Below are positions 5,954 to 48,878 of a DNA stretch of 64,000 nucleotides, piece after piece. This stretch comes from Patescibacteria group bacterium (GTDB lineage Bacteria; Patescibacteriota; Patescibacteriia; Patescibacteriales; Patescibacteriaceae). Numbering within the stretch: the first letter of the stretch is position 1; each line of letters begins with the position of its first letter. Made by a program: the position numbers and the translations under genes. The notes beneath the pieces were generated by a model that saw nothing but the letters and a program-made list of their open reading frames with translations, did not search any database and was not told where the DNA came from. The DNA is taken from contig CP129471.1 in the NCBI GenBank assembly GCA_030583705.1, positions 50,506 to 114,505 on the forward strand. The letters run 5' to 3'.

Positions 5954-6117
5954 ATTTTTAACATCTTAGTTTAGTATTATTAGCTACTGTCTATTATACA
6001 ACAAACTTTTGTTTGGAGCTATTTTTTAAAAGATATATTAAAGATATATTTATGCGCTTATCTAAGGCTTATTTTTGCTCTGTTTTTTTATTTTAGGCTG
6101 TGCTATAATGGCTTTAT

Positions 6118-6870
6118 ATGAAAACTGCTTATTCTCTTATTACCAAAGACATTATTCTTGATGAGCGGACAGTTAGGCCGCTTAAAGAATATATCTTAAA
6201 GATTAAGGACATGCCGTCCGATGACCGACCTAGGGAGAGGTTGGCTAAGCATGGCCCGTCTTCTTTATCTATTGCCGAATTAATGGCAATTATTTTAGGT
6301 AATGGCACTAAAAAAGAAGAGGTTATGGCGATGACCGCCAGAATAGTTAAAGAATATGGAGAGAAAGCTTTATCTAATCAGCAAAAGCCTAAGGTTTTGG
6401 CTGAAGAGTTGGATATACCCCTTGGTAAAGCTATGCAAATAGTAGCTTGTGCTGAACTTGGACGACGCTTTTTTGATAAACCGAGCCATGGTCCGGTGGT
6501 AATAAGAACTGCTAAGGATGTTTATGACTATTTAATAGATCTTCGTAATTTACCAAAAGAACATTTACGAGGTCTTTATCTTAACACTCACCATCGTTTA
6601 ATCCATGATGAAATTATTTCCATTGGTACAATTAACAGTAATCTAATTCATCCAAGAGAAGTCTTTAAACCGGCAGTGGAGTACGGGGCAGCGGCAGTGG
6701 TTTTAGCACATAACCATCCTTCCGGTATAGTAACTCCCAGTAAGGCGGATATAGAGATAACCAATCATGTAATTGCTGCTGGGGAGATTATTGGTATACC
6801 ATTAGTTGATCATGTTATTATTGGTCCAGATTCCTTTGCCAGTATAGAGGCGGATTATCGTCAAGCCTAA
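6118..6870 (+). CDS. radC: RadC-like JAB/MPN domain protein (UPF0758)
   Basis: JAMM motif 'HNHPSG..PS..D' (AVVLAHNHPSGIVTPSKADIEIT) and HhH-like N-terminal region. Confidence 0.75.
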   Translation: MKTAYSLITKDIILDERTVRPLKEYILKIKDMPSDDRPRERLAKHGPSSLSIAELMAIILGNGTKKEEVMAMTARIVKEYGEKALSNQQKPKVLAEELDIPLGKAMQIVACAELGRRFFDKPSHGPVVIRTAKDVYDYLIDLRNLPKEHLRGLYLNTHHRLIHDEIISIGTINSNLIHPREVFKPAVEYGAAAVVLAHNHPSGIVTPSKADIEITNHVIAAGEIIGIPLVDHVIIGPDSFASIEADYRQA

Positions 6871-7819: not shown

Positions 7820-8701
7820 ATGGAATATTCTTCACATAATTTCTCTGCTATCGGTACTGACTGGACTATTGATCTGCCTTCTAATCTTTCTGCGGCTGAA
7901 CAAAGTTCTTTAGTGGAAAAATTAAAAGACAGACTTGAGCTTTTTGATTTTACTTATTCTCGTTTTAGGGCAGATTCAATTATTACTCTTTGGTCCAAAA
8001 AGGCCGGGCAATATCCTTTACCAGATGATGCCGGGCCTCTTTTGGCTTTATATGAAAAAGTATATTCTTTAACGGATGGCTTAGTTAATCCTTTAATTGG
8101 CAAAACCATTGCTTCGGCCGGTTATGACGCTAATTATTCTTTACGTGCATCTTCTGTTTTAGAAGAAACCCCTTCTTGGGAAGATGTTTTATCTATTGAT
8201 AAAGACTCCATTACTTTTAAAAAACCGGCGATACTTGATTTAGGGGCAGCTGGCAAAGGCTATGCCATTGATCTTTTGTCTGACATATTGACTGAACATG
8301 GGCTTGAATCTTTTATGATTAACGCCGGTGGAGATATTTTTCGTAAGGAAGAAACCGATAGTGTGGTACGGGTTGGCTTAGAAGATCCCCAAGATTCTTC
8401 CAAGGTAATTGGGGTAGCATCTTTACATAACGGCAGTCTTTGTGCCTCAGCCGGTAATCGTCGGGCCTGGCCAGGTTTTCATCATATTATTAACCCGAAA
8501 ACTAAAAAGTCTCCCCAAGATATTATAGCGGTTTGGGTTTCGGCCGAAACAGCCGCTTTAGCGGATATTTTAGCTACTGCTCTTTTCTTTTGTCCCCCAG
8601 AAAAACTTAAGACGACATATGATTTTGAATATGTTATAATTGGAAAAGATCGCTCGGTAAAATATTCCACTAATTTTAAGGGTGAGTTGTTTTTAAAATA
8701 G
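7820..8701 (+). CDS. apbE: FAD:protein FMN transferase ApbE (Ftp)
   Basis: 'YSRFRADSII' N-terminal motif and 'LDLGAAGKGYAIDLL' (GxxGKGYAxD) characteristic of ApbE. Confidence 0.75.
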   Translation: MEYSSHNFSAIGTDWTIDLPSNLSAAEQSSLVEKLKDRLELFDFTYSRFRADSIITLWSKKAGQYPLPDDAGPLLALYEKVYSLTDGLVNPLIGKTIASAGYDANYSLRASSVLEETPSWEDVLSIDKDSITFKKPAILDLGAAGKGYAIDLLSDILTEHGLESFMINAGGDIFRKEETDSVVRVGLEDPQDSSKVIGVASLHNGSLCASAGNRRAWPGFHHIINPKTKKSPQDIIAVWVSAETAALADILATALFFCPPEKLKTTYDFEYVIIGKDRSVKYSTNFKGELFLK

Positions 8702-16253: not shown

Positions 16254-17146
16254 AACTCTCATATCTCTATGATGTATTTAAGCAACATATTAAATCCTAT
16301 AAGTGGCTAGCGCTTTCTTGTTTGTTTGCGTAGAGGCCGCTTAACAAGCGGTTTTTTTGTTCCCTTAAAAGTATTTTGTCCGCTCGCGGAATTGTTACTT
16401 CGGTAATAATTCCACGACCGTATAAAATACGGTTACCTTAAAAATTGAACACGCGAATAAAGTAACTGTAATTTTGTAAGTTAAGAGTCCAATTAATGAT
16501 GATCTGCATTTTTGAAAACAAAGATGTAGGAAAATCTCGTAAGGGTGTATGGTGGATGCCTTGACTCAAGAAGACGATGAAGGACGTAGCAGTCTGCGAT
16601 AAGCCTCGGTTAGGTGACAAGCAACCTTTGACCCGGGGATTTCCGAATGGGGAAACCTATCCTGTTGAAGACAGGATGTCCGCATGCTGAACACATAGGC
16701 ATGTGAGACGAGTACTCGGTGAACTGAAACATCTTAGTAGCCGAAGGAAAAGAAAACAAATTTAATCTTTTATCAAGATTGACGATTTTTCGTCTGTTTT
16801 GATAAGAGATTGCGATTCCCTGAGTAGTGGCGAGCGAAAGGGGAGCAGCCTAAACCGTTTAGACCATATATACTGGACTCACTTCGGTGAGAAAAGTATG
16901 TTGAAGGAATTAGGTCCATATGTTTTTACGGTGTTGTAAGAGTGCCATGATTGCTACCTAATGCGGCAAGACGGCGCTATTGAATTATTAGTCGAAGGAG
17001 CTGGAAAGCTCGGCCAAAGACGGTGATAGCCCGGTAGACGAAAATAAGACAGGCGTTGTGATGGCAAATCTTAAGTACTGCGGGACTCGTGAAATTCCGT
17101 GGGAAGCAGGGTCGACTATGACCCAAGGCTAAATACTTCTTGAGAT

Positions 17147-17183
<37 letters not shown>

Positions 17184-18692
17184 CATCCCGGTGAGGGAGA
17201 TGAAATAGTATCTGAAACCATATACTTACAAGCAGTCGGAGCCTGTTACCTTCGGGTAATCGGGTGACGGCGTGCCTATTGAAGAATGAGCCAACGAGTT
17301 TGTTGTATGCGGCTTGATTAATTCCGTTAAACGGAAGCAGTCATAGTGAAAGCGAGGGTTAACCGCCCGTACTCTTATTTATTAGAAGTGGCAATAATTT
17401 GTCCTTACGCAAGTAAGGCTTTGTTGTTCTTCTATTAGATAAGAAGGTCGCATGCACAAGACCCGAAGCCGGGTGATCTAACCATGGCCAGGTTGAACCT
17501 TGACGAAAGTCAAGGGGAGGACCGAACCCGTAAGTCGTGCAACACTTTGGGATGAGCTGTGGTTAGCGGAGAAATTCCAATCGAACTCGGCAATAGCTGG
17601 TTCTCCTCGAAATAGCTTTAGGGCTAGCCTCGAGCGCTGAACATGGGGGGTAGAGCACTGAATGGGGGTGGGCCGCAAGGTACCTTCTCCAACCAAACTC
17701 CGAATACCCATGCGTGTAGCTCGGGAGTCAGACTATGGGCGCTAAGGTCCATCAGTCGAAAGGGAAACAGCCCAGATCGCCATCTAAGGTCCCTAAATAT
17801 AAACTAAGTGTAAAAGGTGGTGTCGTGACCGCGACAACTAGGAGGTTGGCTTAGAAGCAGCCATCCTTTAAAGATAGCGTAATAGCTCACTAGTCTAGTC
17901 GTCTCGCGCCGAAAATGTACCGGGGCTAAGTTTATTACCGAAGATGCGAACTTGTTACTTAGGTAACAAGTGGTAGAGGAGCATTCCAACGCCGCTGAAG
18001 TCGTGATGTGAGTCACGGTGGAGGTTTTGGAAGAGAGAATGTTGGCATAAGTAGCATAAAGGCGGGTGAAAACCCCGCCCACCGAAAATCTAAGGGTTCC
18101 TGGGCAACGTAAATCGTCCCAGGGTTAGTCGGCCCTAAGGCGAGGCTGCTGTAGTGGCAGCGTAGTCGATGGATGAGCTGGTTAATACTCCAGCACTACT
18201 GTAATTTTCCGATGGGGGGACGAAGTCTCAAGGTTCAAGCGTTTCTATGGTATGAACGTTGTTGTCCGCAAGAGCTGATCCAGGCAAATCCGGATCACCA
18301 AGCTCAAGCGGTTGACTGAAGACAAAGCTTTCGGGCGGCGTCAATTTGAGCTGAGAGATTTTCCAGAAAAGCCTCTAGGGTTAAGATTATAGTATCCGTA
18401 CCGTAAACCGACACAGGTAGATGAGGCGAGAAGCCTAAGGTGAACGAGAGAACCCTCGTTAAGGAACTCGGCAAAACAGCGGGCGTAAGTTAGCAATAAG
18501 CCCTGCCCCGCGCAAGCGGGGCCGCAGCGAAAGATTTCAAGTGACTGTTTACCAAAAACACAGCTCCCTGCTAACTCGTAAGAGGATGTATAGGGGGTGA
18601 TGCCTGGCCAGTGTCCGAACGTTAAGAGGAGAGGTTAGCACTTCGGTGCGAAGCTTTGAATCGAAGCGCGGATGAACGCCGGCCGTAACTAT

Positions 18693-19408
18693 AGAAGCTT
18701 AGGACGACCCTTTGGGTTTAAGCGTTGTAGTTACGTTAAAAAATCTGACTATATGCTGGAAACTCCCGTTAGACAAGCGGTACTCGGTTAAACACCAGTG
18801 AAAATCCGTTTGGTAGGGACAATCAGCAGGAAAGCTAATACTATGTTAAATATACAAAATATTCCGGACCGTATAGGCTATTATTTAGCCGGTTTTACGG
18901 ACGGAGAAGGTAGTTTTATGGTAGTGGTTCGTAATCGCCCGGATTTTCGGGCCGGTTATAAAGTTTCTCTTTGTTTTAATGTTTCTCAGAAAGAAAGTTA
19001 TATTCTTTCTCAGTTTAAAAAACATTTAGCTTGCGGAACTTTAAGATCACGACCTGATGGAGTCTGGTATTTTGAAGTTAATAACTTCAAGGCTATCAGT
19101 GAAAACATCATTCCTTTTTTTGATCGATTTGGTTTTTTGTCGCAAAACAAGAAAAAGCAATACGCTTTATTTAAGCGAGCGGCTTATATTATAAAAACTG
19201 AAACTCATTTGACCTTAGAGGGTTTTCAAAAAATTCTCTTAATACGAAGTCAAATGAATCGTGGTGGAAAAAGAAAAAACTTAGCATCCTCAGAGACTAT
19301 ACGTCAGACCCGTTTACGGGAAGATATAGTCCGACCTTCAGTGAAAGCTGAAGAGCTCAGCAGAAATGTTTGAGCCACTTAACGGCAACGTTAAGGAGTA
19401 ACAAGATG
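18693..19408 (+). mobile_element. group I intron in 23S rRNA (near E. coli position ~1917) carrying a LAGLIDADG homing endonuclease ORF
   Basis: Exon sequence GTAACTAT^AACGGTCC interrupted; 5' exon ends in U, intron ends in G; contains 'gactatatgctggaaactc' core also seen in the 16S intron 1. Confidence 0.7.
18798..19373 (+). CDS. LAGLIDADG homing endonuclease (intron-encoded; probable true start M 18843)
   Basis: 'YLAGFTDGEGSFMVVV' LAGLIDADG motif; located wholly within 23S intron. Confidence 0.75.
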   Translation: MKIRLVGTISRKANTMLNIQNIPDRIGYYLAGFTDGEGSFMVVVRNRPDFRAGYKVSLCFNVSQKESYILSQFKKHLACGTLRSRPDGVWYFEVNNFKAISENIIPFFDRFGFLSQNKKKQYALFKRAAYIIKTETHLTLEGFQKILLIRSQMNRGGKRKNLASSETIRQTRLREDIVRPSVKAEELSRNV

Positions 19409-19422
19409 AACGGTCCTAAGGT

Positions 19423-19749
19423 TGTGTAATTTTACGAAGGTAAGATTATACAAGGACTGGGACCGTTATCTTAAAGTTCGTTACCTGGCTATAATGAAAG
19501 TTGTAGTTGTCCTAAAACACCCAGTAAAATGCGCTAAAATCTTCAAAAGATTTTTGGTACCACTCTCTTTTATGAGACATGGTAAAAATCCGGAAATACA
19601 CGGAGGCAAGGCGCAGGATTAATTAAATATTAATCCCCAGAGACTTAACACTGGGGTCCTAAGATGTAAGACTAGTATCTGAAGTTAACTAGATTATATT
19701 ATGGATAAGATAAAGTCCGGGCTTAATAGATAATATTAAGAAGGACCAG
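19423..19749 (+). mobile_element. second, ORF-less intron in 23S rRNA (near E. coli ~1931), 14 nt downstream of intron 1
   Basis: Exon AACGGTCCTAAGGT^AGCGAAATTCC interrupted by 327 nt; 5' exon ends U, intron ends G. Confidence 0.55.
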
Positions 19750-19797
<48 letters not shown>

Positions 19798-20289
19798 AAC
19801 TTGAAAACTGTCTCAACGAGGGACTCGGCGAAATTACAGGACCGGTAAAGATGCCGGTTAACCATAGCTAGACGAAAAGACCCCGTGAAGCTTTACTACA
19901 GCTTGATATTGGGTTAGGGATATATCTGTTCAGAATAGGTGGGAGCCTTCGGGCGCCAGTGAGATACCACCCTGGTATATTTTTAATCCTCACTTCGATC
20001 CGTGAATCCGGATAAAGGACAGTATCTGGTGGGTAGTTTGTCTGGGGCGGATGCCTCCTAAAAGGTAACGGAGGCGTTTACAAAGGTTGGCTATCTCGGG
20101 ATGGAAACCCGGGAGATAGTGTAAAGGCATAAGCCAGCTTTACTGCAAGACCTACAAGTCGCGCAGTTGCGAAAGCAGAACTTAGTGATCCGACCGTGCG
20201 AAATAGAACGGCGGAAGCTCATCGGATAAAAGCTACTCCGGGGATAACAGGCTAGTCACGCCCAAGCGTCCACAGCGACGGCGTGGTTC

Positions 20290-20322
<33 letters not shown>

Positions 20323-20332
20323 GTGGAGAAGC

Positions 20333-20385
<53 letters not shown>

Positions 20386-20732
20386 CCGTCGTAAGACAGG
20401 TCGGTCTCCTCTCTACTATGGTCGCGGAAATTTGAGAAGGCTCTTCCCTAGTACGAGAGGACCGGGAAGAACGAAGCTCTAGTGTGCCAGTTGTCCTACC
20501 AAGGGCATTGCTGGGTAGCTACCTTCGGTTTAGATAAACGCTGAAAGCATCTAAGCGTGAAGCTGTCTTCAAGATTAGATTTCATAGGTTGGTCAGAGAC
20601 TATGACCTTGATAGGCTCCAGGTGTAAGTCCGGTAACGGATTGAGCCGAGGAGTACTAATAAACCATTAGATTTTCCTACAATTTTGTTTTTAAATCACA
20701 GTCTTTATTCGTGTGTCAATTTATAAGAGTTT

Positions 20733-24618: not shown

Positions 24619-25671
24619 TTAAGAGGAGAGTTTGTTTTTAAACCAATTAACCCAAGGTATTTCCATGGGGTTAACTTTGTTTTCAAGAGCTAAATAGTAT
24701 GTTAGCCAACCACCTAATTGCAACATAACCAGGGCTTGGATTAAAGCGTTTGAGCCAACAAGGCTATATGAACAAACAGTAATATTTTGTTTCTTAATAA
24801 CTTCTTTAGTTAAATCAAGTCGTTTATTGATTCTTTTGTCATTAAGGCTTGATTCAAAAAACAAAGCAGCCAGTCTTTTTTTATTGGAGGACGGATACTT
24901 AAGACCTTCCATGGCAAAATGGTTCATTTCGGATAAGACCAAGTAAGAGGCGTAGTTTTTGGCGTTTTCGCACCATTGGTTACGTAGAGTCTTAAGATTA
25001 CCTTCAAATAATGGACCACCGATTAAAATAGTTTCTTTATCTGATAGCTTTTTTGCCAATTTTTTAATTGAAGAGCTATTATTTTTTAGATCTTTGTTAC
25101 TTTTTTTAACTTGTTTGATTAAATCTTTTATTTCTTTGTCTGGTAATTTAATTACTCCGAGTTTTTTAAGTATAAGCAAGAAAGAAGCTAAGGAAAGACC
25201 AAGTCCGGCACGGGGTTGATTAGATGGATTGGTTTTGGTACTAAAACAAAAACGGGAAATATTGTCTTTTTCGGCTTTTTTAAATAAGGTACTGTTTTTA
25301 TCTCCGGTTAAAGCCAGTAGTTGAGCACCTCTTTTTTTAGCTTTGTCATAAGCGACTAAGACTTCTTCGGTAGTTCCGGAATAAGAAGAAAGGATGTAGA
25401 GAGTTTTTTTATTAACATGACCATTAAGTTCATAACCTGGTTCAATAATTAAGGGGATTTTAAGTTTATTTTGCCAAATTGATTTAATAATCTCCGCTCC
25501 AAGATTGGAACCACCCATACCGTTAACAACTATTTTATCTATGTTTTTAACAGAGGGTTTTATGATAAGGTTTTTTTCATCACTAAAAACCGCTGCCATT
25601 TGATCCGGCAACTTACTTAAAGATTCTTCAAAGACTGGGAAACGCATTGAGCGCTTGAGAGCGAGAAACAT
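24619..25671 (-). CDS. bifunctional phosphoglucose/phosphomannose isomerase (SIS domain, archaeal-type PGI/PMI family)
   Basis: 'IVVNGMGGSNLGAEII' SIS motif and overall ~330 aa two-SIS layout. Confidence 0.55.
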   Translation of the reverse strand: MFLALKRSMRFPVFEESLSKLPDQMAAVFSDEKNLIIKPSVKNIDKIVVNGMGGSNLGAEIIKSIWQNKLKIPLIIEPGYELNGHVNKKTLYILSSYSGTTEEVLVAYDKAKKRGAQLLALTGDKNSTLFKKAEKDNISRFCFSTKTNPSNQPRAGLGLSLASFLLILKKLGVIKLPDKEIKDLIKQVKKSNKDLKNNSSSIKKLAKKLSDKETILIGGPLFEGNLKTLRNQWCENAKNYASYLVLSEMNHFAMEGLKYPSSNKKRLAALFFESSLNDKRINKRLDLTKEVIKKQNITVCSYSLVGSNALIQALVMLQLGGWLTYYLALENKVNPMEIPWVNWFKNKLSS

Positions 25672-25764
25672 AATATAGATAGTGTAGCGGATTTTAGGAA
25701 AGAAATCAAGCTTAGTTGCCTACTTAGATGATTTGTTTTTTTAGGGCTTTATCAAGCTCAACTT

Positions 25765-27084
25765 CTAAAACAATTTTCTCCCCCTTTCTTCCTTTTCTTT
25801 ATCAGTAAAAATTCTAACTGTACCATACTCTCCGTCATAGCCGGGTTTAATAGTTAATTTACCCTCTCTTACTCTCTTAATACCTTCGGTAATCTGGGGA
25901 AAAGTTTTATTTATAGTTTTAAGATCAGTGTCTAGGAGTATGGTTAGTTCTGATCCTAGCTCTTTCGTCATTGCCTCATAAATCTGTTGAACCTTTTTAG
26001 AGAAGCGACTTTTAATATTTAATGATTCAGCGATTATCTTATCCAACTCCACAATTTTTACAAAAGGCGATACCTTTTCTGGTCTTTCTCCTTCTTTTCT
26101 GTCTGCTAGTTCTTCAACTCTGTTTAATACCCCAATAACCAACGGCTTATTGCATTTTGGACAAAGATTTTGGTGTTTTTTAGATTCTTTAGGTTCAAAA
26201 CTTATATTACAAGCCCGATGTCCGTCGTAATGGTACATGCCTTCTTCCGGATAGAACTCTATGGTTTTAATAATTTTTTCTGTTTTTTTGTAGCGGATAA
26301 TATCATAAATTTCTTGGTAGCTTGGTTCTTTACTTAAAGAAAAAACACTAGCTTCTCTAGCCAAATTAGCTAAAGAGTGGGCGTCTGAAGAAGAAAGCAG
26401 GGTAAGGTTATCTAAACCAAAGATTCGCCAATTCATGTCGGGGTCACTGGAAATACCGGTTTCATAGGCATAGATATGTTCAGTTTGTTCATGAAAACAT
26501 TCTTCTACTGAGTTAAAGCCGGATTTTGAACCAAACATAGAAAACCAAGGAGTCCAGATATGGGCGGGGTAGATTAAGAAATTGGGATCAATGGATAAAC
26601 AAAGTTTAACTAGAGCAGGGCAGCTCATACCGAGAATAGGTCTTCCGTCTGAACGGATATTGTAGTGTTTATCCAGATAGTCGTTTAAAGTTTTAACCGC
26701 TTTAAGGTTAGGAGCGGTAACCATAATGTGTACTCTTCGGGCTTTTCCGCCATCTTTGTATATTAAAGATAATTCGGTAGAGAGAATAAATTTAATGGAG
26801 TTGTCTTGAGAGGTTTTTAGCCTATATAATCCCGAAGAGTTAATTTCTTCAAGTTGGTTATTAATATCTCTAAACCAAGCCGGATAGGTAAAGTCACCGG
26901 TAGCAATAATATCGATACCCTTAACCCTACAATTAGCTTCAATATTAGGTAGAGTAAGCCTAGGACTGCAGGCCCGGGAATATTTGGAATGGATATGGAG
27001 ATCTAGAATGTGGTTCATGGGGTTATTGTAGCAAAAAAAGAGGTCAGAGGAAAGGTTTTTATTTAGGGCGATAATCATAAACAC
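25765..27084 (-). CDS. PHP-domain phosphoesterase with C-terminal Zn-ribbon, endonuclease Q-like (possible start M 27018)
   Basis: 'ILDLHIHSKYSRACS' PHP metal-binding motif near N-terminus, 'CPKCNKPLVIGV' Zn-ribbon; ~420 aa as EndoQ family. Confidence 0.45.
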   Translation of the reverse strand: MFMIIALNKNLSSDLFFCYNNPMNHILDLHIHSKYSRACSPRLTLPNIEANCRVKGIDIIATGDFTYPAWFRDINNQLEEINSSGLYRLKTSQDNSIKFILSTELSLIYKDGGKARRVHIMVTAPNLKAVKTLNDYLDKHYNIRSDGRPILGMSCPALVKLCLSIDPNFLIYPAHIWTPWFSMFGSKSGFNSVEECFHEQTEHIYAYETGISSDPDMNWRIFGLDNLTLLSSSDAHSLANLAREASVFSLSKEPSYQEIYDIIRYKKTEKIIKTIEFYPEEGMYHYDGHRACNISFEPKESKKHQNLCPKCNKPLVIGVLNRVEELADRKEGERPEKVSPFVKIVELDKIIAESLNIKSRFSKKVQQIYEAMTKELGSELTILLDTDLKTINKTFPQITEGIKRVREGKLTIKPGYDGEYGTVRIFTDKEKEERGRKLF

Positions 27085-27138
27085 CTCAATAGGTTGAGGT
27101 GTTTAAGTATTTACCAGGTTATTAATATGGCTTATTAA

Positions 27139-27540
27139 TTATTTCCTATGTTTCTCGCACCGGCAGTTTTTTCCAATAAAAGCTTCAAAATATTCTTTAC
27201 CGTAATTATAGAAAAGTTCTTCCCCGACTTTAATATTTCGTGTAGCCCTAAATCTTATTCGTTTGGCGTATTGAATTGGTTCGCAGTTGGTTTTAATGCA
27301 AGCATGATTAATATAGCGGGCGAGGTTTGAGGGGTTATTACCGTCAATCGTCCAGGTCTTGCCTAAAGCGAACAAGTATTTGCCTTGTTTCTTTTGGGCC
27401 TGTTCATCGGTTAACAGAGGTCCTGTATATTCAATGATAAAAGAACCTTTTTTAATGGGTTCTATAACAAATAAACCAAGGCCGGAAGTGCCTCGTTTAA
27501 CACATAATTTAGCACGTTGATCATTATTAATTGATTTCAT
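27139..27540 (-). CDS. SET-domain protein (putative protein-lysine methyltransferase) with post-SET Cys cluster
   Basis: 'GLFVIEPIKKGSFIIEYTG', 'YINHAC..NCEP' (NHSC motif), 'ELFYNYG', C-terminal 'CRCEKH'. Confidence 0.7.
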   Translation of the reverse strand: MKSINNDQRAKLCVKRGTSGLGLFVIEPIKKGSFIIEYTGPLLTDEQAQKKQGKYLFALGKTWTIDGNNPSNLARYINHACIKTNCEPIQYAKRIRFRATRNIKVGEELFYNYGKEYFEAFIGKNCRCEKHRK

Positions 27541-27542
27541 AG

Positions 27543-27971
27543 CTAGCTTTTTTCGTAGTTAAATTTTTTCCTTTTTAATTTCTTTAGTTTTTTGACCTCA
27601 ACAAATTCTGCTGTTTCATATTTAATTAAGACTCCTTGTGCTAACTTAGCTCCCTTTTTTATACTTATAGATTTATTAGTTGTATTTTTAAATATTAATT
27701 GTATTTCATCGTCATCACCACAAAAGAAGGGATCAATGATACCAACAGAATGAGGCATAACTAAACCTGTATGAGTTGGAGTGCTACTACGTGAAACAAC
27801 TAATAATACATATCCTTTGGGTATAACTAAGGCAACATTGGATGGTATGCTTCGTATTTCATTGGGCTTAATAACTATGTTGGTTCTGCATAAAAAATCA
27901 AAGCCAGCTGCCCTTTTTTCGTATTCTGGGAGTGATATATTTTCATCAAAGCGTTTTATTTTAATTTTCAT
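27543..27971 (-). CDS. dut: dUTP diphosphatase / dCTP deaminase-family protein
   Basis: 'VVSRSSTPTHTGLVMPHSVGIIDPFFCGDDDEIQLIF' matches trimeric dUTPase motifs 3-4. Confidence 0.55.
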   Translation of the reverse strand: MKIKIKRFDENISLPEYEKRAAGFDFLCRTNIVIKPNEIRSIPSNVALVIPKGYVLLVVSRSSTPTHTGLVMPHSVGIIDPFFCGDDDEIQLIFKNTTNKSISIKKGAKLAQGVLIKYETAEFVEVKKLKKLKRKKFNYEKS

Positions 27972-28009
27972 ATATCTTCTACTATTATTTTTTAATGGTG
28001 TAATGAGCC

Positions 28010-28207
28010 TTACTCTTTCTTTTTAGTTATAAACATTACAACTAAGGAAGCAATAAATATTGCGATAAAGGTGTAAAGAACCTTCATGAAGGCTTCTTTA
28101 GCCATTTCATTGGTAATAACCTCCCAAATTGTTAAGATCGCAATGAATAAGGTAACCAAGGAGAATAGGATCAATAAGATCCCTATAAATTGCTTAATTT
28201 TTGACAT
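28010..28207 (-). CDS. small 2-TM membrane protein (65 aa)
   Basis: ORF with hydrophobic helices; promoter-like motif upstream. Confidence 0.3.
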   Translation of the reverse strand: MSKIKQFIGILLILFSLVTLFIAILTIWEVITNEMAKEAFMKVLYTFIAIFIASLVVMFITKKKE

Positions 28208-28388
28208 AGAGTTAAATTAATTATTAATAAATAAATTTTATAGATAACATAAAAACTAACTAAATTTTATCAATATTTAGCTAATTTTACAAGGACATTT
28301 ATATATTTCTTTAAAAACACTAAGTCTCTTCTCTAAATAAAGGAATTATTTATTTTTATTTACAACCAGCTTCTTCATATATTTTCCC

Positions 28389-28916
28389 CTAAAGTGATTC
28401 ACTCCTCTTAATAATTTCTTGTGCTATTTTTCTAAGTGAACGATTTGCATCTATAATGATTACACCTTTTTGTTTTAAATTATTTTCCCATTTGGTTTTC
28501 TGACTAAATATCCATTTTTGAACCTCAGTTGTTCGTCCAAATTCATTTATTTCACGAGCTTTAAGTCTTTCACGAAGTATATTTTGGTTTGTTTTTAATA
28601 AAAATACTTTATTAAATAATGGGAGTAAATCATCTAGATTTGAGGCGGTTCCACAGTAGAATATGATTCCTTCTGAATTTTTACGAATAAGGCTTTGTAG
28701 TCTTTTTTTATTACAGATCCAATCGCTTTGTTTTACATTTTCAAGATTATCATTGTCATAATTTTTAAATGGTTTATTTGTTCCTTTGTGAGTTATGGTA
28801 AATAAACCGTTAATATCTTCAATTCCAAATGCTTTGTGGCCAAGTTTATTTAGTTCGTTACAAATGGTAGATTTACCTGTACCAGCAATACCTGTTATTA
28901 ATATTTGTTTGGCCAT
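28389..28916 (-). CDS. P-loop NTPase / small-molecule kinase (AAA_33-like)
   Basis: Walker A 'GIAGTGKST' at N-terminus; 175 aa kinase-like size. Confidence 0.5.
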   Translation of the reverse strand: MAKQILITGIAGTGKSTICNELNKLGHKAFGIEDINGLFTITHKGTNKPFKNYDNDNLENVKQSDWICNKKRLQSLIRKNSEGIIFYCGTASNLDDLLPLFNKVFLLKTNQNILRERLKAREINEFGRTTEVQKWIFSQKTKWENNLKQKGVIIIDANRSLRKIAQEIIKRSESL

Positions 28917-28971
28917 ATACTATTTATTATTTTAATTTTCATGTTAGGTTTTTTGGTCTTCTGGTTTATTT

Positions 28972-29490
28972 TCAGCGTTGGTCGTTATTAAAATAATAAT
29001 CCAGAACTCCCAGCTGTAGGGTAAATATTTTTTCAGGTGATTTTTCAAATATATTTTTTAGTTCAGATTTCTTAATCCACTTAATATCTTTACATTCTTC
29101 TTGCTGCGCAATCGGTTCTTTATTTTCAACCCTACAAATAAAAACAAATCCAATCCAAGGTTCCCCGCCTTTTATTTGCTGTTGACAACAGAATGGTTGA
29201 AAGGCAAAAGAGCCATCATTTTTTGGAGAATGTGTTTTGGTTTTTATATTAGGAAATATTTCTAAAATTTTTAATCCGGTTTCTTCCAATACCTCTCTAT
29301 AAAGAGCATCATAAACATTTTCGTATTTATCAATCCAACCAGCCGGAATTTCTAAAGTTCCGGAATACTCAGGATCTTTTTCCGGCTTCCATCTGGTTTG
29401 CATCAAAATTTCAGTTTCACCGTTATGCTCTCTTTCTATTATAGCCGAAACAACAGGGAAACAAGTGTTAATTGTATTTATTTCAGTCAT
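28972..29490 (-). CDS. NUDIX hydrolase
   Basis: Nudix box 'ALYREVLEETGLKI'. Confidence 0.7.
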   Translation of the reverse strand: MTEINTINTCFPVVSAIIEREHNGETEILMQTRWKPEKDPEYSGTLEIPAGWIDKYENVYDALYREVLEETGLKILEIFPNIKTKTHSPKNDGSFAFQPFCCQQQIKGGEPWIGFVFICRVENKEPIAQQEECKDIKWIKKSELKNIFEKSPEKIFTLQLGVLDYYFNNDQR

Positions 29491-29623
29491 ATTACTGATT
29501 AGTTAATAGTCTGGTAATTAAATATTTTTTAAGATAGTAGCTAAATTTTATCAATATTTAGCCAATTATGCAAATAAAATAGGCTTGTTTTGCTTCTCTT
29601 GGTTTTTCTGCTACACTGAAGCT

Positions 29624-31030: not shown

Positions 31031-31310
31031 ATTATATGATAATAATTAAGCAATACCAGGATTCTAGTATACATAGCAATATTCAGCTGAATATTGAGAC
31101 TTAAGTTAATAAATTTGTCTAAATTTCTATACTTAGCTTATTTTAACTATATTATAGTTAACTTTTTTTGTCAATATTTCTTGGTCTTATATAGTAAGAG
31201 ATAAAGTATTTTTAAGTAATTTACGGACTAATTCTGGGTATTGACAGTATTAAAATTATATGTAATAATGATTAATTCTTTAAAAACCAAAAAAACAAAG
31301 GAGAATCATC

Positions 31311-32690
31311 ATGGACATTTTAGTGTATTTAATTTCTATTTTGCCGTTTATATTGGTAATACTACTTGTTCTTATAGTAGTTCGTCTTGCGGCTAAATAC
31401 CGCGTTGTTGTACCAACCAATATGGTTGACATAGTGCAGTCAAGAAGAAATACCACTTCATATGGCACTGGACAAGAAGGTAAGAATGTGTATTTTGCTT
31501 GGCCAAGCTGGATACCTCGTATAGGTGTCACAGTTATTAAACTTCCTGTTTCAAACTTCGATCTTTCCCTAAAGGACTACGAAGCATATGATAAGGACAG
31601 AGTACCTTTTATGGTTGACGTGACAGCGTTCTTTCGTATTACAGATACAAGAATTGCTGCGCAAAGAGTAAAAAGCGTGGAAGATCTTACTCACCAATTA
31701 CGCTTAATAGTTCAAGGTGCTGTTCGAAAGGTTCTTGCTTCGGACGTTATTGATGAAGTTATGACACAGCGTTCAAAATTTGGCGAACAGTTTACTGCAG
31801 AAGTTAAGGATCAGCTTGTAGAATGGGGAGTTGAATCAGTAAAATTCATGGAATTAATGGATATACGTGACTCCCATGAAAGTAGAGTTATCGCTAATAT
31901 TATGGCAAAAAAAATATCTCATGTTGAGATGGAGAGCCGTCAAGAAGTAGCGAAAAACAACAAGCAAGCTAGAACTGCAGAAATTGAAGCCGAACAGGTT
32001 GTGGACATAAGGAAGCAGGAAGCAGAACAGGCTGTTGGAGAAAGAACAGCTGATAAAGATAAGGCGGTTGGGATTGCTAAAGAAACTTCTAAGCAAGAAG
32101 TTTTATCGGCAGAAAAAGTTACCAAAGAAAAGGAGATGCAAGTCAAGAAAGTTGATGAAGTGCAATCTGCAGAGATTAAGAAGGAGAGAGAAATTGTTGC
32201 TGCTGAAGAAGACAAGAAGACAAATGTGATTAGAGCTGAAGGACAACTTGAAGCTAAGCGTCATGAAGCTTCCGGTATTCAAGCTGAGGGTACGGCCAGA
32301 GCTGAATCTGAAAAATTAATGCAACTTGCTTCAGTTGAAGCCATGATTACGTTGGCGAAAGAAATTGGTGCTAACCCCAATTATCAAACCTACCTTGCTA
32401 CCCTCGAAGCAATTAAAGCCTACATAGCTGTTGGTAGTAAGCAGGCAGAGGCTTTAAAAAATGCTGACGTTAAAGTCATATCAAATGCAGGTAAGCCAAC
32501 TGAAGGTTTTAAGGGTGTTATGGATATTTTTTCAAGCCAGGGAGGAGCAGAGCTTGGAGCCATGGTTGAGGCTTTTGCTCAAACACCAACAGGAGAAAAA
32601 TTCCTTCATAAGTTAGGTGTTGATATGCCAAAACAACCGGTGAGTCAAGAAGAAAAAGATGTTAAAGTTGTTAAAAATTCAACAGAATAA
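31311..32690 (+). CDS. flotillin-like SPFH/Band-7 domain protein
   Basis: N-terminal TM, SPFH region 'NVYFAWPSWIPRIGVTVIKLPVS', long Glu/Ala/Lys coiled coil (flotillin repeats), GGAGG-type RBS upstream. Confidence 0.7.
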   Translation: MDILVYLISILPFILVILLVLIVVRLAAKYRVVVPTNMVDIVQSRRNTTSYGTGQEGKNVYFAWPSWIPRIGVTVIKLPVSNFDLSLKDYEAYDKDRVPFMVDVTAFFRITDTRIAAQRVKSVEDLTHQLRLIVQGAVRKVLASDVIDEVMTQRSKFGEQFTAEVKDQLVEWGVESVKFMELMDIRDSHESRVIANIMAKKISHVEMESRQEVAKNNKQARTAEIEAEQVVDIRKQEAEQAVGERTADKDKAVGIAKETSKQEVLSAEKVTKEKEMQVKKVDEVQSAEIKKEREIVAAEEDKKTNVIRAEGQLEAKRHEASGIQAEGTARAESEKLMQLASVEAMITLAKEIGANPNYQTYLATLEAIKAYIAVGSKQAEALKNADVKVISNAGKPTEGFKGVMDIFSSQGGAELGAMVEAFAQTPTGEKFLHKLGVDMPKQPVSQEEKDVKVVKNSTE

Positions 32691-32764
32691 ATAGCAATTT
32701 TTTAATTTTAAATAAGTATAAAATAAACCATTTGACACGATAAGTACGTCAAATGGTTTTTTAT

Positions 32765-33298
32765 TTATAAAAGTTTAAGATAATCCAGCCCAAGATAGCC
32801 AACTTCAACATCTGTCATTTTTCCACTTCGTAGAAGTTCTCTGAATTCCTTAAGAGGCATTATAGTAACTTCGGCAAATTCTTGGTCGTCCAGTGTTTGT
32901 TCCTCAGTTTTTTTACAATCTCTAACCACAACACAATACCGGCGCCTGGTGGAATAAGCGCAGTCTAATACTTCCGTCACTAGTTCGGCTTGGCCTGTAT
33001 AACCGGTTTCTTCTTTTAGTTCCCTTAGAGCCGCTTCCTCGGGTGTTTCTCCTTCATCCATACCTCCTCCGGGCAGTTCGTTGAGAATTTCCTTGGGCCC
33101 TGGTCTGAATTGTTTAGCGAGAATAATCTTTTGATCTTCAGTTACTGCTACAATAGCAACGGCTTGACCTTCTTTTTTAATATAAAAATCAACTTCTTGT
33201 TCATTAGGCATTTTAAAGATAACTTTTTCAATTTCTTTACCATACTTACTTTTAAAAACAGTTTCCCGAGAGATTTCTTCCCATTCTTTAATTTCCAT
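32765..33298 (-). CDS. NUDIX hydrolase (ADP-ribose pyrophosphatase-like)
   Basis: Nudix box 'GGGMDEGETPEEAALRELKEETGY'. Confidence 0.7.
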   Translation of the reverse strand: MEIKEWEEISRETVFKSKYGKEIEKVIFKMPNEQEVDFYIKKEGQAVAIVAVTEDQKIILAKQFRPGPKEILNELPGGGMDEGETPEEAALRELKEETGYTGQAELVTEVLDCAYSTRRRYCVVVRDCKKTEEQTLDDQEFAEVTIMPLKEFRELLRSGKMTDVEVGYLGLDYLKLL

Positions 33299-33402
33299 AT
33301 AATTGTATTTATTATTATTCTTCTAATAGTAGTTAATAAGTATGCTTTTGTAAAGATTGACAAAGCCGTAAATTAAGACTATGATTTAAGTAGTTTTAAG
33401 AC

Positions 33403-36692: not shown

Positions 36693-36747
36693 ATTTTTCT
36701 TCTTAGGTATTTATGTTATACTAGCAGTATAACAATTATTAAACAAT

Positions 36748-45738: not shown

Positions 45739-45773
<35 letters not shown>

Positions 45774-46214
45774 ATGTGTCTAAGGCATGCAAGTCGAACG
45801 CGCGTAGCAATACGCGAGTGGCAAACGGGAGAGTAACACATTGGTAACTTACCTTGAAGACGGGTATAGCTCGGAGAAATCCGAGGTAATCCCCGATAGT
45901 CATGGGGGGACATAAGTCATTCCCATGTAAATGGTCCGCCGCTTCAAGAGAGGCCTATGTTCTATCAGCTTGTTGGTAAGGTAACGGCTTACCAAGGCTA
46001 CGACGGATAGCGGGTGTGAGAGCATGACCCGCCTCACTGGGACTGAGAAACTGCCCAGACTCCTACGGGAGGCTGCAGTCAAGAATCTTCCTCAATGGCC
46101 GCAAGGCTGAAGGAGCGACATCGCGTGCAGGAGGAAGCCCTTCGGGGTGTAAACTGCTTTTCTCTGGGAAGAAACAATGACGGTACCAGAGGAATAAGGG
46201 GTTGCTAAACTCGT

Positions 46215-47112
46215 AAAATAAAATTTAGCAGTAAACCTTGTATTATCGGAGTGCGACTCTTAACGGTAACGTTAAGATGCATAACTCGGCTTATATGCTG
46301 GGAACTCTAACCACGTTAATAATCTGCTGTTTAGTGGTTAGACAATCAGCAGGGAAGTTGTTATGATTCAGTTATGAATATTAGTTTAACACAAAGACAA
46401 AGATCAATTGTCATCGGCAATATTTTAGGTGATGGTTATTTGGATTTTAATGGTTTTCGCGGAACCAGGCTTCAAATGAAGCAGTCTAAAAATTATAAAA
46501 TGTATATTTTTTGGCTTTATCGTGAATTCTTTAATATATGCAAAGATCATCCCAAAGCAAGACCTGATGGTAGTCAATGGTTTTTCGGTACAAGATACCT
46601 AGATGAGCTAACAGAATTAAGGCAACGATTTTATAACATTTCAGGTAAAAAAATCGTTCCCAATGAGATCGGTAAAATTTTAACCGACCCTCTTTCTTTA
46701 GCTGTTTGGTATATGGACGACGGAACATTGGACTGGAGACTTAAAGATCATTATGCTTTCAGTTTAGCCATCAATTGCTTTTCTCTATCGGAAGCGGCAA
46801 TGTTATCCAATACATTGCTCTGTAATTTTGATATTAAAACAACTGTGCAAAATCCTTTGTGCAGAGGTAAAAGATATCCAAGATTATACATAGGCAAAAC
46901 CGGCAGAGATAAATTTTTGTCTTTAATAAAACCTTATATGGTTTCTTGTTTTAACTATAAATTACCTCCTCATAATTAACCCCTCAGAGACTGATCCTTA
47001 AGTGGAGAGATAGCGGTACTTCAACTATGTTGAAAATCAATCTGCCGCTATAAAACGCCGGGCATCCTATTTTTATAGGATGGTGATATAGTCCAATTGG
47101 CAATATTTATTG
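46215..47112 (+). mobile_element. group I-type intron in 16S rRNA inserted inside the universal 515F site (after E. coli ~516), carrying a LAGLIDADG ORF
   Basis: Exon GCTAAACTCGT^GCCAGCAGCAGCGGTAATAC; 5' exon ends U, intron ends G; shares 'atatgctgggaactc' and 'acaatcagcagg' elements with 23S intron 1. Confidence 0.65.
46374..46979 (+). CDS. double-motif LAGLIDADG homing endonuclease (intron-encoded)
   Basis: 'IGNILGDGYLD' and 'LAVWYMDDGTLD' motifs. Confidence 0.75.
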   Translation: MNISLTQRQRSIVIGNILGDGYLDFNGFRGTRLQMKQSKNYKMYIFWLYREFFNICKDHPKARPDGSQWFFGTRYLDELTELRQRFYNISGKKIVPNEIGKILTDPLSLAVWYMDDGTLDWRLKDHYAFSLAINCFSLSEAAMLSNTLLCNFDIKTTVQNPLCRGKRYPRLYIGKTGRDKFLSLIKPYMVSCFNYKLPPHN

Positions 47113-47372
47113 GCCAGCAGCAGCGGTAATACGAGTACCCCAAGCGTTATCCGGATTTATTGGGCGTAAAGCGTGCGTAGGCGGTTTATAACATCTCTTG
47201 TTAAATCCCAAGGCTCAACCTTGGGGCTGCGGGAGATATGGATAAACTAGAGACTGGGAGAGGCAAGCGGAATTGCTGGTGTAGGGGTTAAATCCGTTAA
47301 TATCAGCAGGAACACCAAAAGCGAAGGCAGCTTGCTAGAACAGTTCTGACGCTCAGGCACGAAAGCGTGGGG

Positions 47373-47403
<31 letters not shown>

Positions 47404-47482
47404 CGCCGTAAACGATGGATGCTGAGCATTGGGAGTTTCGACCCTCTCAGTGCTGTCTATCTAAGTTAACACCTTAAGCATC

Positions 47483-47524
<42 letters not shown>

Positions 47525-47525
47525 A

Positions 47526-47569
<44 letters not shown>

Positions 47570-47989
47570 ATTAAGCGAGGAACCTCACCAAGGTTTGACA
47601 TATAGCTGCAGACCCCTGGAAACAGGGGAGCCTTCGAGGGTGCTATACAGATGCTGCATGGTTGTCGTCAGCTCGTGTTGTGAAATGTACCGTTAAGTCG
47701 GGAAACGAGCGCAACCCCTACCCTATGTTTTACGTGTCATAGGGGACTGTCTGCTTTAAGCAGGAGGAAGGTGGGGATGACGTCAAATCAGCATGGTTCT
47801 TACACCTTGGGCGACACACGTGCTACAATGGGAAGTACAAAGGGACGCCAAACCGTAAGGTGGAGCAAATCCCAAAAAACTTCTCTCAGTTCGGATTGAG
47901 GGCTGCAACTCGCCCTCATGAAGCTGGAATCGCTAGTAAACGCGGATCAGCCATGCCGCGTTGAATACGTTCTCGGGTCTTGTACTCAC

Positions 47990-48878
47990 AATAAAAGCGC
48001 CGGGCAGTTTAATGGAGAAGATTGTTTATAACATATCTTCTTATAATCCAAGGAGTTAAAATCTCCTCCTCCGTATCGTCTACGGAGAGTAGTTGAAGGA
48101 TAGTCGTCAATCGTGAGGTTGGCGGTGAAGGATCCGGAAACAAATTTTAGTCCGACATAAAAACGGTCGCATCGACTTTTGAATAGGTGGTGAGCAAAAG
48201 GAAGATGCCAAGCCAAGACCGGTTGGAATGAAAGGAATGGAACATTAAATGACCCCGGGAGATCTTGCGCTGTCTTATTTGTATGTTATTATATAAATAA
48301 GTAAAGAAACTTACGCAGCGTAAGAAGTCAGCTGAATCATAGTACCTCGTTTTTCGAGGGAAGGATTCACTCAGTGCATATGGAATTAGAGACAAATTAC
48401 ATTGTCGGTTTGGTTGACGGAGAAGGAAGTTTTACGGTTTACGTAAAAGATCCGGATTCCGTTAAGCAAGTTAAGAGGCGAACAAAAGTTGAGCCGAGAT
48501 TTTTTATTAAGCTAATTGAGAAAGATAAAGAAATTCTTTTTCAGCTTAAAAAATATTTTGGTTGCGGTAATGTTTATTTTCAAAAAGACAACCGCTTAAA
48601 TCATCGTAATTGTTATCGCTATGAAGTATCGAATAGACAAGATTTGTTTAATATTATAATTCCTTTTTTCGAAAGTAACGTTTTGAAGTTACGCTCAAAA
48701 CGTGGTGACTTCGAAATTTTTTGCAGAATTATGAAGATGATACAGAATAAAGATCATCTAACAGATTCTGGCTGGTATAAAATATACCGGCTTAAGCAAA
48801 AAATGCATTAGAGCTCGCGTAGTGCGGGAAATCCGCTCGCTACGTGGGAACATCAATTTACAGTTTCGTAAAGATAAT
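47990..48878 (+). mobile_element. second intervening sequence in 16S rRNA at ~E. coli 1397-1400 (inside 1392/1406 universal region), carrying LAGLIDADG ORF; boundaries approximate
   Basis: 'cttgtactcac' and 'cgcccgtcacacca' separated by ~890 nt; boundary does not obey simple U/G group I rule so exact ends uncertain. Confidence 0.5.
48374..48811 (+). CDS. single-motif LAGLIDADG homing endonuclease (intron-encoded)
   Basis: 'IVGLVDGEGSFTVYV' motif; 145 aa (I-CreI-like size). Confidence 0.7.
   Translation: MHMELETNYIVGLVDGEGSFTVYVKDPDSVKQVKRRTKVEPRFFIKLIEKDKEILFQLKKYFGCGNVYFQKDNRLNHRNCYRYEVSNRQDLFNIIIPFFESNVLKLRSKRGDFEIFCRIMKMIQNKDHLTDSGWYKIYRLKQKMH

Follow-up and report, generated by a model that had tools for sequence, protein, structure and literature searches.

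The locus described here raises the question of whether six neighbouring genes, all read in the same direction, form one functional module against deaminated bases in DNA. The genes lie at approximately 25765–29490 on the minus strand of a stretch of 64,000 nt of contig CP129471.1 (Patescibacteria group bacterium, GCA_030583705.1), which is called the window in this text. In order of transcription they encode a NUDIX hydrolase, a P-loop kinase, a 65-aa hydrophobic protein, a dUTPase-family protein, a SET-domain protein, and an Endonuclease Q (EndoQ) family protein. The first-pass annotation had read the row as one operon, and all six open reading frames (ORFs) were present in the ORF list in the order and at the coordinates that it gave. 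Our analysis led to a different reading. The row is very probably a mosaic on one strand, made up of at least four pieces that each have a history of their own and placed in a variable slot beside holA, and not a conserved uracil-repair operon.

For the comparison with other species, EndoQ loci were surveyed in one genome per GTDB species, giving 80 loci (L012–L091), each with flanks of up to 8 kb to the left and right; in 59 of them the upstream part measures at least 2.5 kb. The window SET, dUTPase, kinase, and 65-aa proteins were found in none of these 80 loci (tblastn, E ≤ 1). The two NUDIX proteins of the window gave weak matches at the level of the Nudix box (E 0.006–0.08) in three of them. 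As a control of tblastn sensitivity, dUTPases with 57–70% identity were found in other loci at E ≤ 2e-55. A Pfam scan of the gene directly upstream of EndoQ, which covered 73 loci, returned nucleotidyltransferase (20), CofD (5), SIS (5), and NUDIX (1) genes, and neither a dUTPase nor a SET gene held this position in any of the 73. The gene most often found upstream encodes a MobA/IspD-like nucleotidyltransferase (about 245 aa) and has the orientation of EndoQ.

SET and dUTPase were found in other surroundings. SET orthologues with 71–78% identity were located in a ferric reductase / DsbB-DsbA(-MscL)-SET / RsgA neighbourhood in all six cases. In these loci (L001–L011; SET at about 6001–6460 in most) the ferric-reductase-like gene is divergent, followed by DsbB-DsbA(-MscL)-SET, which is convergent with RsgA. 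dUTPase relatives with 57–70% identity occupied three other contexts: after an integrase, within the order YhcG-dUTPase-YbeY-DAGK-FtsA-FtsZ, and within the order CarS-dUTPase-NUDIX.

These results bear on the model of a single six-gene operon against deaminated bases, in which dUTPase and NUDIX would clean the nucleotide pool, EndoQ would nick at deoxyuridine (dU) or deoxyinosine (dI), and SET would regulate a chromatin-like target. The genes are co-directional with a 2-nt dUTPase/SET spacer, and both EndoQ and dUTPase have to do with uracil in DNA (PMC5961232, PMC6202378), which speaks for such an operon. The arrangement was nevertheless seen in 0/80 EndoQ, 0/6 SET, and 0/4 dUTPase loci of other species. 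It is polymorphic within the species too, and a conserved gene order in related genomes was not found. The EndoQ, SET, and dUTPase neighbourhoods differ and the NUDIX and kinase genes are private to one strain, and nothing supported co-inheritance of the proposed deaminated-base avoidance and repair module. The operon model is largely refuted by the synteny data, and we regard it as extremely unlikely.

In the nearest other species (L013, L014, and L066), whose EndoQ is 68–78% identical, S20-holA is kept. The gene for bifunctional phosphoglucose/phosphomannose isomerase (PGI) is adjacent to EndoQ in L012, L013, and L014. L014 also keeps the large surface protein, and L066 ends within EndoQ. 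The gap between holA and EndoQ contains a secreted-looking protein and a non-orthologous NUDIX in L013 and L066, and a membrane protein of 139 aa, encoded on the other strand, in L014. Since differing genes fill this gap, the holA-EndoQ space is a variable slot. From the end of the NUDIX gene of L013 and L066 (164–168 aa) to the EndoQ ATG there are 2 nt in L013 and at most about 7 nt in L066, and this is a further point in favour of the repair operon.

A conserved NUDIX partner was considered and rejected, as the window NUDIX showed only Nudix-box-level similarity to the L013/L066 NUDIX and to the L094 NUDIX located 3' of dUTPase. None of the 106 fetched loci contained an orthologue of the window NUDIX. 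Its similarity to the 166-aa ORF that precedes the kinase in L104, an ORF without assignment, was not significant.

Comparison of strains showed how the row is divided. Same-species contigs, with 96–98% nucleotide identity to the window, were obtained by exact-protein look-up and compared by blastn (L096–L101) or by gene table (L107–L108). The NUDIX-kinase segment (28293–29537) was missing in all eight. In blastn, the alignments of L096–L101 stopped precisely at 29538 and 28292, and the aligned parts overlapped by 36 nt in the query. These break points are the two copies of a 36-nt direct repeat (Table 1), which are 89% identical and have a 22-nt exact core; the core occurs twice in 64 kb, against 0.02 occurrences expected. 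The sister strains have a single hybrid copy, in which the left half corresponds to the holA-proximal repeat and the right half to the 65-aa-proximal repeat. As the segment is missing elsewhere and is bounded by the repeat, NUDIX-kinase is an indel of 1,281 nt that is found in this strain alone. The lack of these two genes in every other strain examined counts against the repair operon.

The kinase has the lowest GC content at third codon positions (GC3) in the region (0.17, compared with 0.29 ± 0.04 for the window), and the GC3 of NUDIX and dUTPase is also low. The kinase relatives that were found have 72%, 63%, and 59% identity. Of the first two, one is a neighbour of genes for a family B DNA polymerase and a HerA/Zot-like ATPase, and the other has a phage-type integrase next to it. 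The pair was probably gained from a mobile source, which is more parsimonious than loss through recombination between the two repeat copies, although such a loss may also have taken place. A second, shorter direct repeat of 16 nt (exact; 27956–27971 and 28927–28942) was also seen, in which the 5' end of dUTPase, ATGAAAATTAAAATAA, recurs in the NUDIX/kinase spacer. This second copy reads M-K-I-K-I-stop and may be a recombination scar or an AT-rich chance match (rough expectation about 0.05).

A mobile source could in principle apply to the five genes from NUDIX to SET, as the remnant of a prophage or mobile element that carried functions for nucleotide metabolism together with a holin. Phages often carry dUTPase, NUDIX, and nucleotide kinase genes, and PHROG matches were obtained for dUTPase (1.3e-29) and NUDIX (7.5e-12). 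The 65-aa protein had a weak holin-like match (E = 0.009), the GC3 of kinase, dUTPase, and NUDIX is low, and, besides the kinase relatives near PolB/HerA-like genes and an integrase, one dUTPase relative lies by an integrase. However, no integrase, capsid, terminase, or attachment-site features were seen in or near the block. Neither the kinase nor NUDIX had a close relative among 2.9 million viral contigs, and the only SET match (39%) was in a giant-virus metagenome-assembled genome (MAG). The GC3 of SET (0.33) is normal, and other Patescibacteria have the gene as a conserved part of the chromosome.

The strain distributions differ, so the pieces did not arrive together. We consider a phage remnant of five genes very unlikely, while a mobile origin for the NUDIX-kinase pair alone is plausible. 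The whole block as one horizontally acquired island was rejected, since its pieces differ in strain distribution and GC3. The PHROGs scan gave only the generic dUTPase and NUDIX matches. A defence system was also considered and rejected; PADLOC gave weak or generic matches only for the six proteins (NUDIX to PDC-S07; kinase to VakA, 1e-4).

The dUTPase/SET junction was a second point of division. The 2-nt spacer was measured as claimed in the first-pass annotation. In three same-species contigs (L096–L098), similarity to the window ended at 27536, just inside SET, after the shared sequence 'TAG CT ATGAA'. There, a PF06821 serine hydrolase comes after dUTPase, again with a spacer of 2 nt, and NAD-salvage genes come next; SET and EndoQ do not follow. 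As homology to L096–L098 ends at this position, the 2-nt junction is a within-species recombination breakpoint, which is a further argument against the repair operon.

In L096 (8432–16413) dUTPase and the serine hydrolase are followed by a 199-aa protein lacking assigned function, an ADP-ribosylglycohydrolase, an NAD synthase-nucleotidyltransferase fusion, a nicotinate phosphoribosyltransferase (NAPRTase), and an isochorismatase-family (nicotinamidase-type) protein. The last four look like a NAD-salvage island, and nothing similar was present anywhere in the 64-kb window.

The other same-species contigs (L099–L101, L107, and L108) have the order holA / 65-aa-dUTPase-SET-EndoQ-PGI, so this arrangement is confined to part of one species. 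It might be explained by a species-specific unit, in which the 65-aa, dUTPase, and SET genes are co-transcribed from the palindromic promoter and a dUTPase-like protein lacking motif V works with SET, for example as a regulator or as a substrate of SET. One upstream promoter-like element, tight spacers (38 nt, then 2 nt), and the hairpin that follows SET are consistent with such a unit. The arrangement is stable in at least four contigs of the species, and a change in dUTPase function is suggested by the missing motif V. Set against this, L096–L098 have the same promoter, 65-aa gene, and dUTPase, but the serine hydrolase replaces SET. The SET orthologues elsewhere (6 loci) are never beside dUTPase, and relatives of dUTPase without motif V occur without SET. 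We judge this explanation very unlikely.

An extra SET paralogue of 171 aa, 33% identical to the window SET, was observed in L100 (4131–4646) and L108 (3609–4124) and is absent from the window and L099. It is a single gene between a promoter-like TGTTATACT and the start codon of bacA; the equivalent spacer of the window is 36693–36747.

The coordinates of the row and its signals are collected in Table 1. On the other side of NUDIX, holA lies divergently upstream, and 3' of PGI a 1034-aa LTD/PKD surface protein is encoded on the same strand. The EndoQ ORF spans 25765–27084, and the ATG at 27018 is its likeliest start, giving 417 aa, equal to homologue lengths and to the gene calls of the sister contigs. 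In transcription order from NUDIX to PGI, the spacers are 55, 181, 38, 2, 120, and 93 nt, with a SET/EndoQ spacer of 54 nt if EndoQ starts at GTG. The first-pass annotation had described short or overlapping junctions. Some spacers are short (2, 38, and 55 nt), but no genes overlap, the others measure 93–181 nt, and the only tight junction is dUTPase/SET.

Table 1. Genes and predicted transcription signals of the row, in order of transcription (window coordinates).
Feature	Position	Strand	Description
36-nt repeat, copy 1	29538–29573	minus	promoter-like TTTGCA-N18-TG-TAAAAT, upstream of NUDIX-kinase
NUDIX hydrolase	28972–29490	minus	172 aa; first gene of strain-specific cassette; PF00293
P-loop kinase	28389–28916	minus	175 aa; second gene of strain-specific cassette; AAA_18
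36-nt repeat, copy 2	28257–28292	minus	promoter-like TTGTAA-N17-TG-TAAAAT, upstream of 65-aa-dUTPase-SET
65-aa hydrophobic, putative membrane protein	28010–28207	minus	precedes dUTPase throughout this species
Trimeric-dUTPase-family protein	27543–27971	minus	142 aa; PF00692
SET-domain methyltransferase	27139–27540	minus	133 aa; PF00856
Hairpin after SET	27078–27105	minus	12 bp, 4-nt loop, 34 nt past SET stop; terminator-like, imperfect U tract
Extended −10 element TGCTACAAT	27025–27033	minus	ends 6 nt before EndoQ ATG; putative promoter, leaderless transcript
Endonuclease Q family protein	25765–27018	minus	417 aa; PHP, Zn-binding, and C-terminal helical domains
Bifunctional phosphoglucose/phosphomannose isomerase (PGI)	24619–25671	minus	conserved downstream partner of EndoQ in nearest relatives; unrelated to repair

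Putative transcription signals were found at several places in the row. After a general consensus scan, reliance was placed on specific repeated elements and folding statistics. Promoter-like elements are present in the 94-nt and 181-nt spacers, and the copies of the 36-nt repeat contain the palindrome GCTAAAT-N9-ATTTAGC. In the window this palindrome occurs in the two repeat copies only, and no exact match was present in the 106 fetched loci. It was considered as a regulon motif and rejected, as no regulon could be defined and there were no sites beyond the two repeat copies.

The hairpin in the SET/EndoQ spacer has a ΔG of −15.2 kcal/mol (z = −5.8), and none of 200 shuffles folded as well. 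The putative EndoQ promoter belongs to a repeated type, TGCTA(C/T)A(A/C)T, located 6–9 nt before start codons. In the window it was also found at 6101–6109, 25681–25688, and 29609–29617, ahead of the gene at 6118, PGI, and holA, respectively, and in L014 at 7983–7991. The EndoQ gene of L014 is preceded by TTGTCA-N17-TGCTATACT-N8-ATG. The element ahead of holA also moves the start of that gene to the ATG at 29624. Judging by this pattern, leaderless or near-leaderless mRNAs may well be frequent in the organism.

The repeated promoter-like elements, the hairpin, and the EndoQ −10 element together point to at least three to four transcription units, as judged from motif matches. A single operon was therefore not supported, given the promoter-like elements in the two spacers and the hairpin and −10 element ahead of EndoQ. 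The first-pass annotation had named independent promoters together with a lack of conserved synteny as evidence that would speak against its reading, and this is the picture that emerged, with candidate promoters for separate parts of the row, read from their motifs, and no conserved synteny.

From these results, a composition of the mosaic can be proposed. EndoQ, PGI, and the large surface protein would be the locally ancestral block, which is beside holA in the nearest other species, and EndoQ probably has a promoter of its own, the extended −10 element, which would give an mRNA with no leader or almost none. The 65-aa gene and dUTPase would form a second piece, a species-level unit under the promoter-like palindromic element. 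SET, which elsewhere comes after DsbB-DsbA, would be the third, joined to dUTPase exactly at the stop/start boundary in some strains. NUDIX and the kinase would be the fourth, a strain-only cassette of 1.28 kb bounded by the 36-nt duplication of the promoter element. The uracil theme common to dUTPase and EndoQ is a coincidence of placement and not the mark of a co-inherited module.

Several observations weigh against the mosaic as we describe it. The promoter scan overall was not above shuffles (29 sites compared with 24.7 ± 4.6), and the promoter assignments are motif matches only. The SET hairpin has no clean U tract and the terminator scan did not call it, so transcription may read through into EndoQ. 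At least four independent contigs of the species share the order 65-aa-dUTPase-SET-EndoQ-PGI, and since it is stable within the species, co-transcription of dUTPase and SET over the 2-nt spacer is likely. A different NUDIX abuts EndoQ in L013 and L066, and a loose NUDIX-EndoQ association in this sub-clade may exist. One dUTPase relative has a NUDIX gene directly after it (L094).

The identities of the encoded proteins were examined individually. Hidden Markov model searches for TIGR00375, SET, dUTPase, NUDIX, and the kinase upheld all the domain calls of the first-pass annotation, and SET, dUTPase, NUDIX, kinase, and EndoQ are, by their sequences, new members of known families in an uncultured bacterium of the candidate phyla radiation (CPR), correctly named at the family level.

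EndoQ matched TIGR00375 with E = 1.2e-52 over model positions 3–373 of 374, and its score (179.5 bits) did not reach the trusted cut-off (326.6). TIGR00375 is a 'hypothetical equivalog' built on closer sequences, and EndoQ therefore represents a divergent bacterial clade of the family. In phmmer the Pyrococcus furiosus EndoQ (PfuEndoQ) structure 5zb8 was matched with E = 4.7e-49, and 5zb8 and 7k30 both gave about 5e-49. Residues 28–426 of the EndoQ ORF are colinear with residues 6–383 of PfuEndoQ, including the C-terminal helical domain. The metal-ligand and pocket residues of PfuEndoQ were taken from PMC5961232. In the alignment to 5zb8, the six PHP metal ligands H8, H10, E76, H84, H139, and D193 are identical. 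Among the lesion-pocket residues, H139, T142, E167, G169, and D193 are kept, L170 is replaced by Ile, and N191 by Ser. The zinc site reads HxxC...CxxC (YHYDGHRAC...LCPKC), with three cysteines kept and His as its first ligand, and this His-first site is common to the relatives L013 and L014.

The protein was thus EndoQ-type with a Zn-binding domain, as the first-pass annotation had proposed, and the alternative that the annotation had named, a different PHP subfamily without a Zn-ribbon, does not apply. At least 8000 EndoQ homologues were found, the named ones among the top matches listed being Patescibacteria, and several Patescibacteria homologues already have the NCBI name 'endonuclease Q family protein'. 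Judged by its sequence, the window EndoQ is a genuine, already-recognised member of the family, which is widespread and well conserved in Patescibacteria. It is most likely a working lesion-specific endonuclease that would nick 5' of dU, dI, and abasic sites by means of two PHP-bound metal ions.

SET matched Pfam PF00856 with E = 1.7e-23 (83.4 bits; gathering threshold 22.4), and PDB SET domains matched it at E of about 1e-13. The motifs GLGLF (GxG), YINHAC (NHxC), and EELFYNY (ELxxxY) were seen in the alignment to EZH2. The C-terminus CRCEKH (CxCxxH) resembles the post-SET CxCx4C and is not canonical. A SET gene had been called unexpected for a bacterium, which was overstated. SET genes are on record in free-living and environmental bacteria and archaea (PMC3980110), and orthologues with 65–78% identity occur across many Patescibacteria. 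A host-directed effector was not indicated either. No secretion signal was seen by reading the sequence, for which no signal-peptide predictor was run, and the gene shows the conservation of neighbouring housekeeping-type genes. Nothing supported a chromatin-directed role tied to repair. The orthologues come after DsbB-DsbA and not near chromatin-protein genes, and these neighbourhoods gave no hint of a substrate.

The dUTPase-family protein matched Pfam PF00692 with E = 1.9e-18 (66.9 bits; gathering threshold 22), and its PDB matches were 8hrv and Bacillus subtilis YncF/YosS (E about 1e-14). With the NCBIfam dut model it scored 77 bits and did not reach the cut-offs of 102–103. Motifs I–IV are present (AAGFDF, SRSS, GIIDxxxxG, and KLAQ). 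In the alignment, motif V (RGGFGSTG) is lost in the window protein and in its nearest Patescibacteria relatives (P0243–P0275), and it is kept in homologues with 38–44% identity (P0290, P0293, P0300, and P0344). The Tyr of motif III is changed to Phe, and the 38–44% identical homologues keep Tyr. The loss of motif V may impair or alter the protein. Because this motif is lost, dUTPase activity of the clade is not to be assumed, which also weakens the repair operon.

NUDIX matched Pfam PF00293 with E = 1e-16 (61.6 bits compared with 21.1) and contains a perfect Nudix box, GWIDKYENVYDALYREVLEETGL, which fits GX5EX7REUXEEXGU exactly. Its best named matches were generic MutT/Nudix models, all far under their cut-offs, a further point against the repair operon. 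The kinase has the Walker A motif GIAGTGKST and matched Pfam AAA_18 with E = 8e-11. Its best PDB matches were weak (adenylate kinase 6/hCINAP, E about 1e-4), and a partial match to the dTMP-kinase C-terminus (1e-6) was far under the cut-off. The kinase, a peripheral member of the row, was the one protein whose sequence gave no unambiguous assignment. The sole family match of the 65-aa protein was the holin-like one, which is sub-threshold, and the protein is 98% identical in L096–L101.

The host has a small, gene-dense Patescibacteria genome (CPR, Falkowbacteria-like), in which it is normal for genes to follow one another in long runs on one strand. The GC content of the window is about 36%. 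Named EndoQ homologues came from Falkowbacteria, Parcubacteria, and Kuenenbacteria, and named SET homologues from Doudnabacteria and Yonathbacteria; the SET and EndoQ homologues with 65–78% identity are Patescibacteria/CPR metagenome bins. The loci L013–L016, L020, L021, and others are clearly of Patescibacteria type, yet their GTDB representative MAGs are titled 'uncultured Gammaproteobacteria bacterium' and are probably mislabelled.

Other features of the window were also observed. The 16S rRNA gene is in two pieces (45741–46248 and 46914–48044), with a LAGLIDADG_2 ORF (46374–46979) within the insertion. The 23S rRNA gene measures 4151 nt (16529–20679), compared with a model of 2925 nt, and contains a LAGLIDADG_1 ORF at 18798–19373. 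The 16S and 23S-5S genes are unlinked, with about 25 kb between them, which is typical for CPR genomes. A segment at 31058–33342 with a Band_7/flotillin gene and the second NUDIX gene (32765–33298) is shared with L096/L097. It is missing in L099/L100, which have 22 unrelated nt instead, and is a strain-level indel without a flanking repeat.

For DNA-repair biology the locus has little weight, as the apparent uracil-repair operon with SET dissolves when relatives and sister strains are compared. It is a caution for gene-dense CPR genomes, where tight co-directional spacing, even of 2 nt, is not a sign of functional coupling. It also illustrates the turnover of small gene cassettes, at gene boundaries or promoter regions, among strains with 96–98% identity.

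A further step would be to regard the holA-EndoQ slot and other promoter-bearing spacers as hotspots, in which cassettes of one or two genes are swapped exactly where one gene meets the next and take over the resident promoter. Three cases resemble such swaps: NUDIX-kinase at the 36-nt repeat, SET versus serine hydrolase at 'TAG CT ATGAA', and the SET paralogue before bacA. We hold this generalisation to be highly improbable. If it were true and a dedicated mechanism existed, it would be an undescribed CPR cassette-exchange system, with the palindrome GCTAAAT-N9-ATTTAGC as a recombination or operator site. The strain-variable SET genes and the dUTPase genes without motif V would then be accessory cargo of the exchange.

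Compared with known systems, the row shares its co-direction and its uracil/nucleotide theme with conserved uracil/nucleotide-pool clusters. Such clusters are defined by gene order across lineages, which was tested for the window row and is absent. The dUTPase-family protein shares motifs I–IV with homotrimeric dUTPases (B. subtilis YncF/YosS and Escherichia coli Dut), whereas these enzymes carry motif V, RGxxGFGSTG, and the motif III Tyr, both of which the window protein lacks. SET resembles the small stand-alone prokaryotic SET proteins (Methanosarcina mazei Gö1-SET, chlamydial, and Bacillus) in its single domain of about 130 aa with S-adenosylmethionine (AdoMet) and catalytic motifs. It differs from them in its CxCxxH tail in place of the canonical post-SET CxCx4C, and its Patescibacteria orthologues come after DsbB-DsbA, away from chromatin-protein genes.

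Endonuclease Q is known from P. furiosus and also from the bacteria Bacillus pumilus and B. subtilis. The zinc ligands of PfuEndoQ are four cysteines (C249, C252, C268, and C271), in contrast with the HxxC...CxxC of the window protein, and a PCNA partner is not expected here, the host being a bacterium. The full-length colinearity is common to PfuEndoQ and the window EndoQ.

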